This document shows, piece by piece, positions 42,547 through 49,113 of a stretch of 64,000 nucleotides of DNA (positions are counted from its first letter, which is position 1; the number at the start of each line of letters is the position of its first letter). The translations under genes and the position numbers were made by a program. Origin of the DNA: an uncultured Bacilli bacterium (lineage in GTDB: Bacteria; Bacillota_I; Bacilli_A; RF39; UBA660); assembly GCA_934096645.1 (NCBI GenBank), contig CAKOMK010000002.1, forward strand, positions 185,645-249,644, read 5' to 3'. The notes beneath the pieces are model-generated. The model was not told where the DNA came from, did no database searches, and saw only the letters and a program-made list of their open reading frames with translations.

Positions 42547-42573
42547 AAGAAAAAAGGGTTTCAAAACCCTTTT
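42547..42573 (-). terminator. Intrinsic terminator after sigma paralogue 2, separating the two sigma genes
   Basis: Minus strand: AAGGGTT-TTGA-AACCCTT followed by TTTTTC. Confidence 0.7.
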
Positions 42574-44038
42574 ATTTATTATGTTTTAATGTTCTTTGAG
42601 AAGCAAAATACTCTTGTAATTGTTGATTATATTTATCACAATTCTTTAACCATGGATAAGCTGGAGTTTCTTCTACTGGCTTAACTTCTGGTTTTCTTCC
42701 ATTAACTGAAAATGTATCAGGATATGTAAAATAGCTTTTTGTATCCGGAGTTTCTTTCTTTACAAGAACAAAATCTCCATTAGAATTTAATACATATTGT
42801 TGACGAGGTTCATCATAGCTATGACTAGCTGGATTAAATGTTCTAACCTTTTTATCAGCTCTTAATTTTCTTATAGCTTTAGCTTCAATTTGTCTTACTC
42901 TTTCACGAGTAACACCCATTTCTTTTCCAACTTCTTCAAGAGTCATTTCACGACCATTCCAAAGTCCCATTCTAGCTTTAATAACAAATAATTCTCTTTG
43001 AGTTAATTTAGGAGCATTTTCAACAGCTTTCATAAATTCATTTAAATAATCTTTAGAAATATAATCATCAAATTGTTCTTTATCATCAGCAATAAAGTCA
43101 CCTAAGAAAGAATCTTCTTCTTCGGCATTAATGGGTGTTTCTAAAGAAACAATATTATCCATTTTACTTAAACAAAATCTAACTTGTTCTTCTTTCAAAC
43201 CAGTCATTTCAGCTAAATCAGTAGGTGTAGCTTCATAAGGATGATTTTTCATCCATTCACCATTTGCTCTTCTGATTTTTAACATACTTTCATGTAAATG
43301 AACAGGAATTCTAATAGTTCTAGATTGATCAGCTATAGATCTTGTAATAGATTGTCTAATCCATGATGTAGCATAAGTACTAAATTTATATCCTTTTGTT
43401 ACATCAAACTTTTCAATGGCTTTCATTAATCCTAAATTACCTTCTTGAACTATATCTTCTAAAGATAATCCACGACCTGTATACTTTCTAGCAACACTTA
43501 CAACTAAACGTAAATTATAGTAAGCAGCATCTTGTCTAGCTTGTTCATCACCTTTAGCTACTCTAGTAAATAACTCACACTCTTGTTCTGGAGTTAAAAC
43601 TACTGGAGGTAACTCACTTAAATATAAATTAAATAGATCTATATCATGAGAACCTTTATGAGCATGTTTACCAACAGAATATCCAGTAGGACTATATCTA
43701 TTTTCTTCTTGAACTTCTAAATTATCCTCAGACTCTATTTTTTCTTCCTCATCATCTTCTTTATCAAGATCATCAGCATTAATTTGCATTAAGCATTTAA
43801 CATTATCATTGTTACATACTCTCTTAGTTTTCTTACTAGACATTAATGCATCAACCATATTTTTTAATTTATCATTAGAATAATATAAATCAAAAGCATT
43901 ATCAATATCTATAGTAAGCTTTTTATCACCTAATAGTTTAACAAGTCCTCTATAGTTAGATAGTTGAACTGCTAAACCACCTTCTTGAAAATTACTATTG
44001 GCATAATTTGTAACCAAATCAAAAACTTTTTCTTTCAT
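42572..44038 (-). CDS. Sigma-70 family factor, SigA-like (488 aa) with extra N- and C-terminal regions
   Basis: IVQEGNLGLMKAIEKFD, GYKFSTYATSWIRQSITRSIADQSRTIRIPVH and GVTRERVRQIEAKAIRKLR. Start set to MKEKVFDL (ATG 44038) after a GGGGG SD. Confidence 0.85.
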   Translation of the reverse strand: MKEKVFDLVTNYANSNFQEGGLAVQLSNYRGLVKLLGDKKLTIDIDNAFDLYYSNDKLKNMVDALMSSKKTKRVCNNDNVKCLMQINADDLDKEDDEEEKIESEDNLEVQEENRYSPTGYSVGKHAHKGSHDIDLFNLYLSELPPVVLTPEQECELFTRVAKGDEQARQDAAYYNLRLVVSVARKYTGRGLSLEDIVQEGNLGLMKAIEKFDVTKGYKFSTYATSWIRQSITRSIADQSRTIRIPVHLHESMLKIRRANGEWMKNHPYEATPTDLAEMTGLKEEQVRFCLSKMDNIVSLETPINAEEEDSFLGDFIADDKEQFDDYISKDYLNEFMKAVENAPKLTQRELFVIKARMGLWNGREMTLEEVGKEMGVTRERVRQIEAKAIRKLRADKKVRTFNPASHSYDEPRQQYVLNSNGDFVLVKKETPDTKSYFTYPDTFSVNGRKPEVKPVEETPAYPWLKNCDKYNQQLQEYFASQRTLKHNK

Positions 44039-44042
44039 AATA

Positions 44043-44063
44043 TTTGAAAACCCCCTTTTCAAA
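44043..44063 (-). promoter_or_regulatory. Leader hairpin presenting the SD in its loop (sigma paralogue 2)
   Basis: Minus strand: TTTGAAAA-GGGGG-TTTTCAAA, the same stem as the copy at 42472..42492. Confidence 0.5.
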
Positions 44064-44071
44064 GTGATTAG

Positions 44072-44100
44072 ATTATAACACACTTTGCTAAAAAAGTCAA
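44072..44100 (-). promoter_or_regulatory. Promoter of the sigma paralogue at 42572..44038
   Basis: Minus strand: TTGACT, 17-nt spacer, TATAAT with an upstream TGT (extended -10). Confidence 0.7.
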
Positions 44101-44106
44101 CACAAT

Positions 44107-44128
44107 AAAAAAAGGCATAAGCCTTTTT
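44107..44128 (-). terminator. Short hairpin/T-run after tRNA-Arg
   Basis: Minus strand: AAAGGC-TTAT-GCCTTTTTTT; the stem is weak. Confidence 0.45.
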
Positions 44129-44139
44129 ATAATTCAAAG

Positions 44140-44216
44140 TGGTGTCCTCGAGGCGATTCGAACGCCTGACCGTACGCTTAGAAGGCGTATGCTCTATCCA
44201 ACTGAGCTACGAGGAC
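44140..44216 (-). tRNA. tRNA-Arg (anticodon UCU), CCA encoded
   Basis: GTCCTCG/CGAGGAC acceptor stem, TACGC-CTTCTAA-GCGTA anticodon arm, AGGCG-TTCGAAT-CGCCT T arm; 77 nt. Confidence 0.9.
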
Positions 44217-44235
44217 GTCTTGAAATTACTAATCA

Positions 44236-44264
44236 AGTATACAACATAATTTTGTAATTTTCAA
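44236..44264 (-). promoter_or_regulatory. tRNA-Arg promoter
   Basis: Minus strand: TTGAAA (44259-44264), 17-nt spacer, TATACT (44236-44241). Confidence 0.5.
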
Positions 44265-44273
44265 GACATTTTT

Positions 44274-45233
44274 TCATTTTTTTAAAATATCAGCAATATT
44301 TTCTTCACTTTCAGTATTAAAAACGACTTCATTTACATTATAATTCTCAAAAACCGAACTAGCAATTATATATTTCACCTCTTCAAGTACATTCTTACTA
44401 TCAAAATCATTAAATATATAATTGTTAAATACAAGTGACATTTTAGACTCATCATGAGTATAATTAACTAACTCTAAATTATCACTAATATAACTCTTAA
44501 AATTATTTTGAGAATTAACAGAACTCTTAAGTTCCTCAATAATAATGTCAATCTTCTCAGATTCACTATTCATTACTTTAGTAACTGGTACATAATAGGA
44601 AATATCATCGTATTTCTTACTAAAATACACAGTAGTTTTATTAATATTATTAAAATTATTTAAATTATACTCTTTATTAATACCAATATTTCTAGTAAGA
44701 GGATAATTTAATTCTTTTTTAGAATTTGGTAAATATTTTAACTCTTCACCTTCTACACTAATATAGATATTATTTATTCCATTAATTTCGGTTAATGTAA
44801 ATACTATTCCTTCAATCATTTCTTCTTCAAAATAAGCATTAATATTGAGTAGATCTTTGCTGAAATCTAAATAAACACTATCTTTATCAACCTTTACATC
44901 TTTTAAAACAGTACCTTTAGGTATAATAGTATAAAATCCATCTAAATCATAATTAGTTATTAAATCAATTTTTTTCTTTATATCTTCAACAATACTTAAT
45001 TTATCATAATAGCAAATAACTCTAGATACATAATTGTCATTATCAATCAAATAAACAACATTCTCATAATTAGATTTATTTTCTTTTATAACTTCAGGTT
45101 TTATATTCTCAGTAGTTGGAAAAAAATAAAATATCATAAATAAAACTAAACATAATGTAGCAATAACAAATTTATTAATGGCATATTTCTTTATCATAGT
45201 AAATTTTATGTTACTGAAATTAAAAAATGACAA
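44274..45233 (-). CDS. gerM: GerM-like protein with two GerMN domains
   Basis: TM/signal anchor, then two repeats of the GerMN pattern (IPKGTVLKDVKVDKDSVYLDFSKDL...IVFTLTEINGINNIYISVEGE, and a second copy). Confidence 0.55.
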   Translation of the reverse strand: MSFFNFSNIKFTMIKKYAINKFVIATLCLVLFMIFYFFPTTENIKPEVIKENKSNYENVVYLIDNDNYVSRVICYYDKLSIVEDIKKKIDLITNYDLDGFYTIIPKGTVLKDVKVDKDSVYLDFSKDLLNINAYFEEEMIEGIVFTLTEINGINNIYISVEGEELKYLPNSKKELNYPLTRNIGINKEYNLNNFNNINKTTVYFSKKYDDISYYVPVTKVMNSESEKIDIIIEELKSSVNSQNNFKSYISDNLELVNYTHDESKMSLVFNNYIFNDFDSKNVLEEVKYIIASSVFENYNVNEVVFNTESEENIADILKK

Positions 45234-45243
45234 TTAAGTCATT

Positions 45244-45456
45244 TTATATAGAAATTTCTCCTAATTTTATAAGTTCTATAACAGCTCCTGCTCTTCCCTT
45301 ACAACCAAGCTTCTGCATTGCATTAGATATATGATTTCTTACAGTCTTTTCACTAATACCAAGTTCATCTGCTATTTCTTTAGTACTTCTATTCTGTATT
45401 AATAAAACAAACACATCTTTTTCTCTTTTAGTTAAAATATTACCTGTCATATTCAC
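45244..45456 (-). CDS. gerE: Stand-alone LuxR/GerE-type HTH regulator (70 aa)
   Basis: LTKREKDVFVLLIQNRSTKEIADELGISEKTVRNHISNAMQKLGCKGRAGAVIELIKLGE is closely similar to B. subtilis GerE as I recall it. Confidence 0.65.
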   Translation of the reverse strand: MNMTGNILTKREKDVFVLLIQNRSTKEIADELGISEKTVRNHISNAMQKLGCKGRAGAVIELIKLGEISI

Positions 45457-45510
45457 CTCTATCTCCTAAAGTAATCTATGAAATAAAGAAACAAAGGTTA
45501 CTAGATACGC

Positions 45511-46005
45511 CTAGTTACTCTCAAATTTAACAGTTATATTCTTTTTAGTTTCAAATTCAGCTTGAACACTTCTCATAATATCATTAGCTAATGTATTACT
45601 ATGATCTTTAGAAGATATTGTTATATATATATTATCATTATTAATCTCAACATAAGAATTAACATTATAATCTTTTAATATTTTTTCTTCTAAATAATTT
45701 TCCTTTCCTTTAGCTAAATTTAATACTTGAAGTTCACTAAAAGCAGAACTTTTTTCTTCTGAAGTAGATGATGGTGAAACTATTTTTTCTTGTAATTTAC
45801 TCATTAAATCAGCAACTTTCTCATCTCTTTCAACTCTTAAAGCAACAAGTTTATTATTTTCACTAACATTAATATCAATATTTTTATTTACTTTATCTGT
45901 ATTATACTTATCACTAAATATTTCACTAGGTAAAGTTATATAATAAACACCTAATATCAGTATTAATGAAAACAATGTCAAAAACCATAAATTTTTTTTA
46001 TTCAT
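45511..46005 (-). CDS. SpoIIIAH-like protein
   Basis: N-terminal TM helix; the C-terminal ...EEKSSAFSELQVL...IYITISSKDHSNTLANDIMRSV...ITVKFE parallels the SpoIIIAH C-terminal domain. Confidence 0.45.
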   Translation of the reverse strand: MNKKNLWFLTLFSLILILGVYYITLPSEIFSDKYNTDKVNKNIDINVSENNKLVALRVERDEKVADLMSKLQEKIVSPSSTSEEKSSAFSELQVLNLAKGKENYLEEKILKDYNVNSYVEINNDNIYITISSKDHSNTLANDIMRSVQAEFETKKNITVKFESN

Positions 46006-46038: not shown

Positions 46039-46062
46039 AAAAAAAAGAACCTAAGTTCTTTT
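46039..46062 (-). terminator. Intrinsic terminator after the receiver-domain frame
   Basis: AAAAGAAC-CTAA-GTTCTTTT with a long T-run on the minus strand; overlaps the stop at 46051. Confidence 0.7.
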
Positions 46063-46419
46063 AATTGATTTTTCAATAACTCTACCAATATCTTTTTCAT
46101 TAAATGGTTTGCAAAGCATTTCTACAATTGGATAAGGTTTCAATATTTCTAATGGAAAATTAGCTCCACTTATTACAGATACAGGAAATCTATCAAATAT
46201 ATTGTTTTTATCAAAATACTCTAATACTTCAAAACCATTCACATTTGGCATATTTAAATCAAGTAAACAACATATTATGTTATTAGAAATATCACTATTA
46301 ACAATTTCTATAGCTTTGGCACCATCATTAGCAATTACTACATCATATTTATCATCAAATAATTTTTGTATAAAAGTAGATACTAAATTAGAATCATCTG
46401 CTACTAATATAGTGCCACG
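46051..46419 (-). CDS. Complete CheY-like receiver domain with no start codon of its own, in the +1 frame relative to the Hpt gene
   Basis: My translation: RGTILVADDSNLV...IICCLLDLNMPNVNGFEVL...VSVISGA...LCKPF...KRT*. The acidic pair, phospho-Asp, Ser and Lys-Pro are all present. There is no in-frame ATG/GTG/TTG before 46251. Confidence 0.6.
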   Translation of the reverse strand, partial: RGTILVADDSNLVSTFIQKLFDDKYDVVIANDGAKAIEIVNSDISNNIICCLLDLNMPNVNGFEVLEYFDKNNIFDRFPVSVISGANFPLEILKPYPIVEMLCKPFNEKDIGRVIEKSIKRT

Positions 46420-46420
46420 A

Positions 46421-47230
46421 CTAGGGAGTAGTAATGTTTTGTGTAACTGGTTGTACTGGAGTCACAGGAGCAACGGGTTGTACTGGAGTTGCAGGTGTTA
46501 CTGGTTGTACTGGAGCAGCAGGCGCCACAGGTTGTACTGGAGTTGCAGGTGCTACTGGTTGTACTGGAGTTGCAGGCGTTACTGGTTGTACTGGAGTTGC
46601 AGGTGCTACTGGTTGTACTGGAGTAACAGGTGCTACTGGTTGTACTGGAGTTGCAGGCGCTACTGGTTGTACTGGAGCAACAGGAGCAACTGGTTGTACT
46701 GGAGCAACAGGAGCAACTGGTTGTACTGGAGTTGCAGGAGCAACGGGTTGTACTGGAGCAGCAGGAGCCACAGGTTGTACTGGAGTTGCAGGAGCCACAG
46801 GTTGAGCTGGTGCAACAGGTGCAGTAGCAGGTGCTGGTGCTGGAGCAGCACTCTCAAGAGGTCCAACAGGTTCCATTCCTAAATACATTTTACTTAATTT
46901 AATCATTTTTCTTGCTTCATTCATTACATTATCATGATTATCATTAACAAAAACAGTATCATTAGCTTTACTCTTTAATTCTGATTGATAAGATAAATCA
47001 GCTAAAGTAACAAATCCTAAATATTTAGCATCGCTTTTTAATGAATGAACCTCAATAGCATAGTTTGGCATATCACCAGATTGCTTATATTGGTCAAGTT
47101 TAGCTAATTTGTCTTCAACTTCCCCCAAAAAGTCATTCATCGTTTCATTATACATTTCAATATCACCAAGTAATTCTAAACTTTGGTCAACATTTACTCC
47201 ATTATTTTTTAAAAAGTTAACATCATTCAT
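46421..47230 (-). CDS. Hpt (histidine phosphotransfer) domain protein with a Pro/Val/Ala/Gln-rich repeat tail
   Basis: Hpt signature [16 protein letters not shown] in a ~115-aa helical domain, followed by PVQPVAPAT repeats; SD GGAG before the ATG at 47230. Confidence 0.8.
46440..46850 (-). repeat. Tandem 27-bp coding repeat (14 phased copies, unit GGTTGTACTGGAGTTGCAGGTGCTACT on the + strand)
   Basis: The GGTTGTACTGG core recurs at 46449 and every 27 nt up to 46773, with a degenerate copy at 46800. The region is visibly GC-rich against the AT-rich background and generates several spurious ORFs in other frames. Confidence 0.9.
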
Positions 47231-47274: not shown

Positions 47275-49113
47275 TTATTTATTCAAAAATTTCTTTAAAA
47301 CTCTTTCTAATTCTGGTTTTTCAATTGGTTTACTTAAATAATCATCAAAACCTTTCTTTAAATATTCTTCTTTCATACCAGAAATAGCATTAGCAGTTAA
47401 TATAACAACTGGTGTTTTAAATCCATCAATTTTTCTTAACTCTTCCATTGTCTCAACACCAGTCATTCTAGGCATCAAGTCATCTACTAAAATAAGTTCA
47501 AATTGTTCACCAGCTTTAATTTTTTCAATAGCTTGAACACCAGAATTAATCATATCCAAATCTAATTGGAATGGCCTTAAAAGTCTTTCAGCAACTTTTA
47601 AGTTCATATTATTATCATCAACTAAAAGTACTCTCTTTCCTTTTAAGTTAATAGTCTTAATTTCACCCTTCTTAGCTTCTTCTTCTCTAAGCTTTAATAT
47701 AACATCAGGTTTAACATAATCTTGATCAATAGATATAGTGAATGTACTTCCTTGTCCGTAAACACTCTTTACATTTATTTTTCCATTCATTAATTCTACT
47801 AGCTTTTTAGTAATTGCAAGACCTAAACCAGTACCTTCGATACCAGCATTTTTTTCTTCATCAATTCTATCAAATTTACTAAACAACTTATCATAGTTTT
47901 CTTCTTTAACACCAATACCAGAATCTTCAACTTCTATTATTATTCTTACATTATTATCTTTAGTTATACAATTAACTCTAAATTCAACATAACCTTGTTG
48001 AGTATATTTAACAGCATTTGTTAATAAGTTAATAGTAACTTGTTTAACTCTTTGTTTGTCACCAAATAAGTATTCAGGAATATTTCTATCATATTCATAT
48101 CTAAATTCTAAAGGTTTATCTCCCATTCTAGCTTTAGTTAACGCTACTAATTCATCAAATAAATCAACAAATTTATAAGGGCCATTAATAAGTTCTAATT
48201 TATTAGCTTCAATCTTAGAAATATCAAGTATTCCGTTAACTATTTCTAAAAGTGTTTGACTGGCTAAAATAATATTTTCAACATCATCATGAGCTTCATC
48301 AGGCATTCCATCTAATTCATTTAATGCATTACTGAAACCAACAACTGCATTTAATGGTGTTCTAATTTCATGTGACATATTACTTAAGAAATCACTCTTT
48401 GCTGTATTAGCTTTATCAGCAGCAATTTTAGCTTCATTTAAATTAGCAATTAATTTAATATTTGAGTCATCAATTGTATAGAACATAAAGAATGTTAACA
48501 ACACAGTACATGGGTTTACTATAAGAATATCTATATAATTATCATCAACTAATAACACAATTAAATAGAAAAGAACCATAAATAATAAAGCCCAATATTT
48601 TTTATTTTTAAAGTTATGTCTGTTCAATATAATTAGTATTCCACTAGCCATAGAACATAAAATAACTAAAATATAAATAAAGTTAGAAGATACACCAACT
48701 GGTGAGAACAAACTATCTTTATAAACAATTTGAACAGGTAATAAGACAAATATTATTGCAAGTAATACAATAAGTATTGATGAGTACATAAGTACCATTT
48801 TACCTTTTCTTTCTCTTCTCTCTTCAGGAATAGAAACAATTAAATAATAAATTATAAAAAACAACATCCATGAAGCAAAACTAAAGAATAGTATTTTCGA
48901 AACAACCGAATATATTGGCAAATCACTAGCATCTCCATTAAGCATAATAAAAAAGCTTATGATTTCCGTAACTAAACTTACAAATGCAGTTCCAAGTAAA
49001 AATATAAATGTAACATTTTCAATTGAATCAGCTTTCTTCTTCATCAAAGGTAAAATTAATATCAGAATTAATGATGAAACAATAATAATGATATAATAGA
49101 TCAAATTACTCAT
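47275..49113 (-). CDS. Hybrid sensor histidine kinase (multi-TM sensor, HisKA, HATPase_c, receiver)
   Basis: About 6-7 N-terminal TM helices; H-box SHEIRTPLNAV, N-box LLTNAVKYT, G-boxes DSGIGV and GTGLGLAI; C-terminal REC (LLVDDNNMN...LVDDLMPRMTG...ILTANA...SKP). Confidence 0.9.
   Translation of the reverse strand: MSNLIYYIIIIVSSLILILILPLMKKKADSIENVTFIFLLGTAFVSLVTEIISFFIMLNGDASDLPIYSVVSKILFFSFASWMLFFIIYYLIVSIPEERRERKGKMVLMYSSILIVLLAIIFVLLPVQIVYKDSLFSPVGVSSNFIYILVILCSMASGILIILNRHNFKNKKYWALLFMVLFYLIVLLVDDNYIDILIVNPCTVLLTFFMFYTIDDSNIKLIANLNEAKIAADKANTAKSDFLSNMSHEIRTPLNAVVGFSNALNELDGMPDEAHDDVENIILASQTLLEIVNGILDISKIEANKLELINGPYKFVDLFDELVALTKARMGDKPLEFRYEYDRNIPEYLFGDKQRVKQVTINLLTNAVKYTQQGYVEFRVNCITKDNNVRIIIEVEDSGIGVKEENYDKLFSKFDRIDEEKNAGIEGTGLGLAITKKLVELMNGKINVKSVYGQGSTFTISIDQDYVKPDVILKLREEEAKKGEIKTINLKGKRVLLVDDNNMNLKVAERLLRPFQLDLDMINSGVQAIEKIKAGEQFELILVDDLMPRMTGVETMEELRKIDGFKTPVVILTANAISGMKEEYLKKGFDDYLSKPIEKPELERVLKKFLNK

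Follow-up and report, generated by a model that had tools for sequence, protein, structure and literature searches.

Here, we identify a split phosphorelay gene in an uncultured Bacilli bacterium, in which an open reading frame (ORF) for a histidine phosphotransfer (Hpt) protein ends at the sequence CCC-TAG-T and an intact CheY-like receiver (REC) follows directly in the +1 frame. The gene lies on the minus strand of a 64,000-nt stretch of contig CAKOMK010000002.1 with 26% GC, which is referred to as the window and to which all coordinates refer. We suggest, with a probability of roughly 0.55, that a corrective or programmed +1 frameshift at CCC_UAG_U produces a 392-aa Hpt-linker-REC protein beside the 269-aa product that ends at the stop codon. 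We regard this frameshift as probable because the split sits on a slip-prone sequence and because the start-less REC is kept by selection. As judged from the comparison of related loci, the junction is a real, conserved, and functional feature.

The zero-frame ORF (46421..47230, minus strand) encodes a 269-aa protein, which consists of an Hpt domain and a Pro-rich linker and ends in QNITTP at ACT ACT CCC TAG T. The identical 269-aa protein is encoded on at least four other contigs. Residues 1-125 (46856..47230, minus strand) match the Hpt profile PF01627 above threshold but marginally (E = 1.2e-5; 25.9 bits versus a cut-off of 24.6), and no solved structure matched this domain by sequence. The phospho-acceptor is His62 in VHSLKSD, which represents the HxxK motif, and this His motif is conserved in the relatives compared. 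The linker is encoded by a 27-nt tandem repeat of 13.3 copies (46446..46804, minus strand; Tandem Repeats Finder score 473, 87% matches) with the translation (PVAPATPVQ)n. The candidate shift site occupies 46420..46426 on the minus strand, with CCC at 46426-46424, TAG at 46423-46421, and T at 46420. In the +1 frame, the sequence is free of stops from 46425 to 46051 (minus strand) and comprises 124 codons counted from Pro and a TAG stop at 46053-46051, with a translation that contains ...LLDLNMPNVNGF...VISG...CKPF...KRT. This is a complete REC, which matches Pfam Response_reg (PF00072) with E = 3.1e-12 and 47.1 bits (cut-off 30.2) over profile positions 1-107 of 111 and is matched by receivers in the PDB at 2e-7 to 9e-6. 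It holds all invariant columns of a 24-member family alignment (D10, D11, D56, G87, K106, P107, and others); the catalytic set is complete, with the acidic pair, the phospho-Asp D56, and K106-P107, and S86 is part of the family motif I-[ST]-G.

The REC frame is closed upstream by a TGA (46462..46464, minus strand), and between this TGA and the ATG at 46251, which encodes Met59 and lies past Asp56, the window contains no ATG, GTG, or TTG in this frame. Immediately before the junction, the REC frame reads ...AAA ACA TTA CTA CTC CCT... and has no canonical start near the Hpt stop; the ACA (46435..46437, minus strand) stands where relatives carry ATG (loci L002, L003-5, and L006) or ATA (L007-9 and L161). 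Joining the two frames at Pro gives the 392-aa Hpt-linker-REC protein. A sequence-only reading of the window, made before the present analysis, had described this arrangement, i.e., the end of the Hpt/Pro-rich ORF at ACU ACU CCC UAG U, the intact receiver in +1 with acidic pair, phospho-Asp, Ser, and Lys-Pro, the closing TGA, the lack of a start before ATG 46251, and the restoration of a single frame by one base less. Inspection of the sequence, translation, Pfam, and the family alignment bear out all of these points. The gene-caller ORF of 66 aa that begins at Met59 (46051..46251, minus strand) was accordingly taken as a fragment; D10, D11, and D56 lie outside it, and constraint is equal over the 58 codons ahead of it, and we therefore reject it as the true gene. 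The junction peptide named in the sequence-only reading is not tryptic at its N-terminal side, as the nearest Lys or Arg ahead of the junction is ~155 residues away; trypsin would cut after ...TTPSR. At this locus, gene callers give only this 66-aa fragment or a 96-aa receiver fragment with a GTG start (window 46051-46251, L007:3001-3291, and L008:157-447) and, therefore, the full receiver is missing from the protein catalogues of this clade. The 66- and 96-aa "response regulator" calls, including those in two NCBI assemblies of metagenome-assembled genomes (MAGs; L007 and L008), are mis-annotations of the full receiver.

Upstream of the Hpt gene, a gene for a 612-aa hybrid sensor histidine kinase (47275..49113, minus strand) encodes a transmembrane region, HisKA (1.6e-16), HATPase_c (1.5e-27), and receiver (Response_reg, 6.9e-21) domains, the E-values being those of the Pfam matches. 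A hybrid kinase gene also precedes Hpt in L001, L007, and L161. Based on this domain content, the hybrid kinase is the predicted upstream partner, and the locus encodes a phosphorelay that would run from the kinase via Hpt to REC.

The split junction is shared by all close relatives that we recovered. Starting from the DNA of close REC and Hpt homologues, we collected another 18 contigs, each from a different assembly; the sources were ENA, Logan, a metagenome collection, and two NCBI MAGs. All 18 carry CCC-TAA-T or CCC-TAG-T with REC in +1, and they represent eight sequence-distinct versions besides that of the window; the comparison of orthologues that the sequence-only reading had proposed thus finds the CCC-TAR-T junction (R, A or G) conserved. 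Pairwise distances define two subclades, A and B, with a synonymous divergence (dS) between them of 0.44-0.81. In subclade A, the position of the former start is ACA and the stop is TAG in the window, L001, L090-93, L163, L164, and L165/166; L161 has ATA and TAG, and L007-9 have ATA and TAA. In subclade B, L002, L003-5, and L006 have ATG and TAA. The ACA type is present in at least nine assemblies besides that of the window. Around the junction, ACTCCCTA is invariant in all nine sequences compared, and the 30 nt that precede it vary at most positions. In the first five REC codons, only AGT/AAT and CGT/CGC changes are seen. The former is tied to the TAG/TAA difference in frame 0; the latter is synonymous in +1 and occurs in two separate sequences, L163 and L002. 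No in-frame revertants were found among REC homologues of at least 87% identity in a search of 5.8 billion proteins, nor among Hpt homologues. On comparative grounds, both an assembly error and a recent lesion can be dismissed as the origin of the split junction.

The linker ahead of this junction differs in copy number among strains. The Hpt ORF encodes 170, 188, 216, 269, or 414 aa, is always in frame, and in all cases ends in QNITTP at the stop codon (L007:1677-2921, L161:3001-3651, L163:407-973, and L164:556-1068, compared with window 46446-46804), and in every strain the Pro-rich linker of 50-290 aa stays free of frame-0 stops as far as REC. In relatives, short-read contigs are often interrupted within this repeat. 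Several ORFs in other frames or on the opposite strand overlap it as well (46202-46882, 46434-46805, and 46489-46827 on the plus strand and 46660-46866 on the minus strand); these repeat-overlapping ORFs (226, 123, 65, 45, and 68 aa) arise from the stop-poor composition of the repeat and are not genes. In some window-type strains, GTG ACT is replaced by GTT ACT (L165:1-130 from Logan SRR32508923, compared with window 46462-46470) and the +1 TGA is lost. In these L165-like strains, a 140-aa REC ORF (P0001) begins with a TTG that lies 20 codons upstream, and this open stretch is absent from the window, L161, and L007.

Substitution patterns indicate that REC is translated, including in lineages that lack a start codon, because purifying selection on its frame is as strong as that on a neighbouring gene and is also seen between start-less lineages. 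Pairwise Nei-Gojobori counts for REC give 20 synonymous to 3 non-synonymous differences between the window and L161, with a ratio of non-synonymous to synonymous rates (omega) of 0.03 (p = 1.5e-11), and 23 to 5 between L161 and L007 (omega 0.04, p = 4e-12); pairs between subclades A and B have omega 0.08-0.13. Excluding the nearly identical pair of the window and L007, omega for REC is 0.03-0.22 (p 1e-11 to 3e-3), and the neighbouring SpoIIIAH-like gene has omega 0.04-0.07 for the same pairs. The constraint is specific to the REC frame, which in the comparison of the window and L161 shows two aa differences and no stops; the other frames, by comparison, have 12-29 stops and differ at 17-20 residues. 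It extends to the 58 codons ahead of Met59, with ratios of synonymous to non-synonymous differences of 6:1 (p = 5e-4) and 9:3 (p = 9e-5). In subclade A, neither the ACA-type sequences (window, L163, L164, and L165) nor the ATA-type sequences (L161 and L007-9) offer an ATG, GTG, or TTG upstream of Met59 in the open part of the +1 frame; thus, REC has no start of its own in subclade A but has an overlapping ATG in subclade B. A pseudogene or decaying remnant, which decayed receiver frames in orthologues would have betrayed according to the sequence-only reading, is rejected for the clade. No stop or indel occurs in the 124 codons in any lineage, and omega is far below 1.

More distant relatives point to the origin of the split. 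We examined 80 loci from a genome scan, from different species and with 47-63% REC identity, and 24 loci from a metagenome scan with 43-53% REC identity. In all 104, Hpt and REC are encoded in one ORF and one frame (REC 43-63% and Hpt 41-65% identical). These fused proteins from gut Bacilli MAGs are orthologous to the window locus and have the same domain order, and REC is in +1 only in the window clade. They are typically ~259 aa, and L031, L036, L042, and L068 have long P/Q/V-rich linkers. At the boundary, the fused relatives read ..P-K-x-G-T-I-L-V-V-D-D, and the Pro aligns with the CCC codon; a shift at this codon would, therefore, restore the family pattern. On this evidence, the Hpt-linker-REC fusion is the ancestral state, and in the simplest history a single inserted C split it, because all 104 relatives keep one frame and the window clade alone has +1. 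The family also includes a more distant, naturally split group, L158-160, in which adjacent frames encode the same two domains downstream of a hybrid kinase, as in the window. In this group, Hpt (119 aa) has no linker and ends right after the domain, and REC (127 aa) has its own ATG 2 nt past the Hpt stop, with GGGAG 8 nt before this ATG as a Shine-Dalgarno (SD) sequence; the window has none of these features. Between the kinase gene and the Hpt and REC genes of L158-L160, positions 1482-2553 contain three small ORFs (141, 127, and 86 aa) without a Pfam match. A 78-aa receiver homologue with 68% identity (P0111; NCBI title "MAG: Clostridium sp.", 1.5-Mb contig) has its own Met start and ends after 78 residues, although the contig is very long, and this family member, too, may be disrupted or recoded. 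The record titles of the Hpt-REC contigs L011, L021, L047, L049, L051, L054, L061, L080, and L084 name Bacteroides helcogenes, Muribaculaceae, or Ignavibacteriales MAGs, and errors in the binning of the contigs or in the labelling of the bins are the probable cause.

We suggest the following scenario. Insertion of one C in the Pro codon at the boundary between linker and receiver, in the common ancestor of this small group of gut Bacilli with low GC, would have converted ...ACT CCT AAT CGT... to ...ACT CCC TAA TCG..., so that REC was moved to +1 and CCC_UAA_U, now with UAG in the window, was created in one step. At this site, ribosomes would pause with peptidyl-tRNA-Pro on the very rare CCC codon and the stop codon in the A site, where termination after Pro would be slow. 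The tRNA would then re-pair one base forward on the common CCU codon and decoding would go on with AGU-CGU-GGC..., giving rise to the 392-aa Hpt-linker-REC protein of the ancestral type, whereas ribosomes that terminate at the stop would release the 269-aa Hpt-linker protein. The hybrid kinase would phosphorylate Hpt on His62, from which the phosphoryl group would be passed to Asp56 of REC in cis within the fusion, and how often the shift occurs would determine how much Hpt is free and how much is tethered to REC.

The junction has properties that fit such a site. In the 36 long ORFs of the window, CCC accounts for only 4 of 446 Pro codons (0.9%), 3 of which are in the Hpt-linker ORF, and CCT for 49.6%; CTC accounts for 0.4% of the Leu codons. 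The Hpt-linker ORF is the only 1 of these 36 with CCC as its last codon. Retention of the linker ahead of REC in every strain of the clade also fits, given that the naturally split L158-160 have none. In CCC_UAG_U, the P-site codon can re-pair to CCU while the A site holds a stop. Moreover, L007, L002, L003, and L006 carry the 9-mer CUCCCUAAU, which is identical to the +1 site of gene 17.1 of the Bacillus phage SPP1, and the window and L161 differ from it only by UAG for UAA. Read directly, the SPP1 site is GCT CCC TAA TGC, compared with ACT CCC TAA TCG in these four loci, and CTCCCTAAT is the common 9-mer.

To our knowledge, very few cases of utilised +1 frameshifting are known in bacterial chromosomal genes, prfB being the classic one, and most examples of CCC followed by a stop that we know of are phage structural genes or incidental events. 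In prfB (CUU_UGA_C), the P-site tRNA likewise slips +1 with a stop in the A site, and the downstream frame is likewise start-less and needed for the full-length product. However, prfB has an SD-like stimulator 3 nt before the slippery codon, a weak UGA-C context, and autoregulation by RF2, while the window site has neither an SD-like element nor a weak context, and its slippery codon is CCC followed by UAG or UAA and then U; it is thus not a site of the prfB type. The closer precedents use CCC itself: Listeria phages (CCC_UGA), Lactobacillus phage Q54 (CCC_UAA), and SPP1 all exploit such sites (PMC3082878, PMC5009743). In SPP1 gene 17.1/17.1*, ribosomes pause at a rare CCC and move +1 to the frequent CCU within CCCUAA, in amounts compatible with the 3:1 ratio of the two products found in tails, and the shift, which takes place where the short form normally terminates, adds a further folded domain (PMC6316719). 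The window site belongs to the same site class, and, as in SPP1, pairing would move from a rare to a frequent Pro codon (CCC to CCU) within the translation machinery of low-GC Bacilli. The two cases differ in that SPP1 17.1 is a phage tail-tube gene with a ratio of ~3:1 in which the shift adds an accessory domain, whereas the window locus is a chromosomal signalling gene, known from its sequence, in which the shift would restore an ancestral fusion broken by an indel. The CCC_UGA genes of Escherichia coli (pheL and 18 others) and the tsh and cps genes of Listeria phages represent the same mechanistic class, with peptidyl-tRNA-Pro on CCC and a stop in the A site. Shifting in the E. coli genes is mostly incidental and the +1 product is not conserved; by contrast, the +1 product in the window clade is a conserved domain under purifying selection. 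A search of the literature for frameshifting in Hpt or receiver genes returned nothing.

A number of observations weigh against a frameshift. CCC_UGA is a recognised shifty stop but, without stimulators, usually yields ≤2% shifting in E. coli, with 15% in pheL via nascent-peptide effects (PMC3082878). At the junction, no SD-like sequence is present ahead of the shift site in the window or the compared sequences; the sequence before the site is CAAAACATTACTACT, in agreement with the sequence-only reading. The predicted RNA fold at the junction is no better than that of shuffled sequences (minimum free energy −12.2 kcal/mol versus a shuffle mean of −12.75, z = 0.19), and none of the 29 pairs predicted from the alignment shows a compensatory change. 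Stimulators are common in the shifty-stop class but not strictly required. U after the stop is a good to strong termination context in E. coli; the stop in the window is UAG, versus UAA at the validated SPP1 site; and the 64-kb window contains no tRNA-Pro gene. In subclade B, the ATG in the REC frame lies 3-4 codons before Pro, giving an overlap of 14-17 nt with the end of the Hpt ORF; therefore, REC could be a separate protein there and the shared junction a matter of simple inheritance. With the root between A and B, the ATG may be ancestral and lost in A or derived in B. Finally, dS in REC between window 46051-46425 and L007:2917-3291 is 0.07, compared with 0.24-0.44 in the flanking kinase, Hpt, SpoIIIAH-like, GerE-like, and GerM-like genes (3-6x lower), and the TAG/TAA state does not track the distances of the flanking genes. 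This pattern suggests recombination within the locus, which would blur lineage-specific inference.

The subclade B start codon leads to the most serious of the competing explanations, which is gene fission with translational coupling. Here, Hpt-linker and REC would be two proteins, ribosomes that end at UAA or UAG would re-initiate a few codons away, using the overlapping AUG in subclade B, the near-cognate AUA in L161 and L007-9, and, in the window, solely the AUA of Ile6, and REC would act in trans as in relatives with separate Hpt and REC genes. The sequence ATG TTA (CTA) CTC CCT AA in the REC frame of L002, L003-5, and L006 fits this explanation, and the 119-aa Hpt and 127-aa REC genes of L158-160 demonstrate that separate genes are tolerated in the family. 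REC also appears to be dependent on the Hpt transcript, since there is no promoter-like site immediately upstream of it; promoter-like hits number 29 versus 27 ± 5 expected, with none in the linker just upstream. Both routes would then depend on ribosomes translating the Hpt ORF. Other observations weigh against re-initiation. The window, L163, L164, and L165 have ACA and no canonical start, yet REC is intact in them and synonymous changes outnumber non-synonymous ones. In L161 and L007, the sole candidate is ATA, a codon that initiates very poorly, yet omega for REC is 0.03-0.04. Initiation at the Ile6 AUA would leave codons 1-5 upstream of the start, and these are conserved and change synonymously in +1 (CGT/CGC). 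Even the subclade B ATG is not preceded by an SD sequence, whereas such a motif is present 8 nt ahead of the ATG in L158 (GGGAG) and also in other genes of the window (GGAG or GAGGTG). Because the window is without a start codon, re-initiation is a weak explanation for the window, and for the clade as a whole we consider it possible but clearly less likely than the frameshift. We infer frameshifting as the route by which REC is translated, and the efficiency of the shift and a regulatory use of the product ratio are proposals on the same footing.

An improbable alternative is that REC has been silenced recently in the ACA lineage, its start having decayed from ATG via ATA to ACA, and is an incipient pseudogene in which lesions have not yet accumulated. 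The former start codon does carry two substitutions, no more than 1-8 nt separate the REC sequences of ACA-type strains, which leaves low power to see decay, and the window compared with L007 gives an omega of 0.29 at only p = 0.05. This last pair is ambiguous alone but is settled by L161, L163, and L164. The eight REC differences counted among ACA-type strains are 5 synonymous to 3 non-synonymous, versus the ~80% non-synonymous changes expected if neutral (binomial p ~0.01). In addition, the start-less ATA-type sisters have omega 0.03-0.04 over a dS of ~0.35, the family-invariant residues are all intact, and the ACA type recurs in the additional assemblies described above. A spurious extra C in an in-frame fusion, introduced by sequencing or assembly, has in its favour solely that this one base restores the frame, and we reject it as practically excluded. 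All 18 additional contigs share this CCC, and they stem from assemblies made with different pipelines and from diverged lineages; a run of three C is not error-prone, and the remaining ORFs of the window are long and intact. The statement of the sequence-only reading that a sequencing error or a recent mutation is at least as likely as a programmed shift is refuted by the 18 independent assemblies, the divergence of the lineages, and the purifying selection. Its proposal of a programmed +1 shift at CCC-UAG-U is partly supported as a probable reading, which gains from a CCC that is rare yet invariant and from the match of the site to the SPP1 CCC_UAA_U; the re-initiation route had been overlooked. 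Transcriptional slippage was rejected, there being no homopolymer run beyond CCC, and an alternative genetic code is irrelevant to a change of frame; TGA, TAG, and TAA each serve as the stop of long ORFs here.

The phosphorelay genes lie directly upstream of the SpoIIIAH-like gene (window 42572-46005, minus-strand region, including 44140-44216). The region 42572-46005 also contains genes for a 70-aa GerE/LuxR-type helix-turn-helix protein and a GerM-like protein (called Germane in L001), tRNA-Arg(TCT), and a sigma-70 family ORF. The order of the neighbours around the phosphorelay genes is kept in all close relatives.

If REC is reached by frameshifting, the site would belong to the class of CCC followed by a stop, in the unusual setting of a chromosomal signalling gene, and the best description would be that of a frameshift which corrects a fixed indel. 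The short bacterial list headed by prfB would gain a cellular case outside mobile elements, and a corrective frameshift fixed over species-level divergence would be documented. The locus also represents a natural experiment, in which a single base was inserted into an ancestral fusion and only one of the two subclades has an overlapping ATG; the site of some clade members is identical to one validated experimentally in a Bacillus host, and the read-out is simple, i.e., a 42-kDa fusion versus a 14-kDa receiver. The wider reading is that of an evolutionarily maintained +1 frameshift in a chromosomal two-component phosphorelay gene, by which one mRNA would give both free Hpt and receiver-tethered Hpt and in which the slip at CCC_UAR_U could respond to the supply of tRNA-Pro or release factor 1 and so tune signal flow; we regard the odds for and against this wider reading as balanced. 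If it is true, a lineage can tolerate an indel that falls on a shifty stop and retain it over long periods, and decoding can determine the proportions in which phosphorelay components are made.

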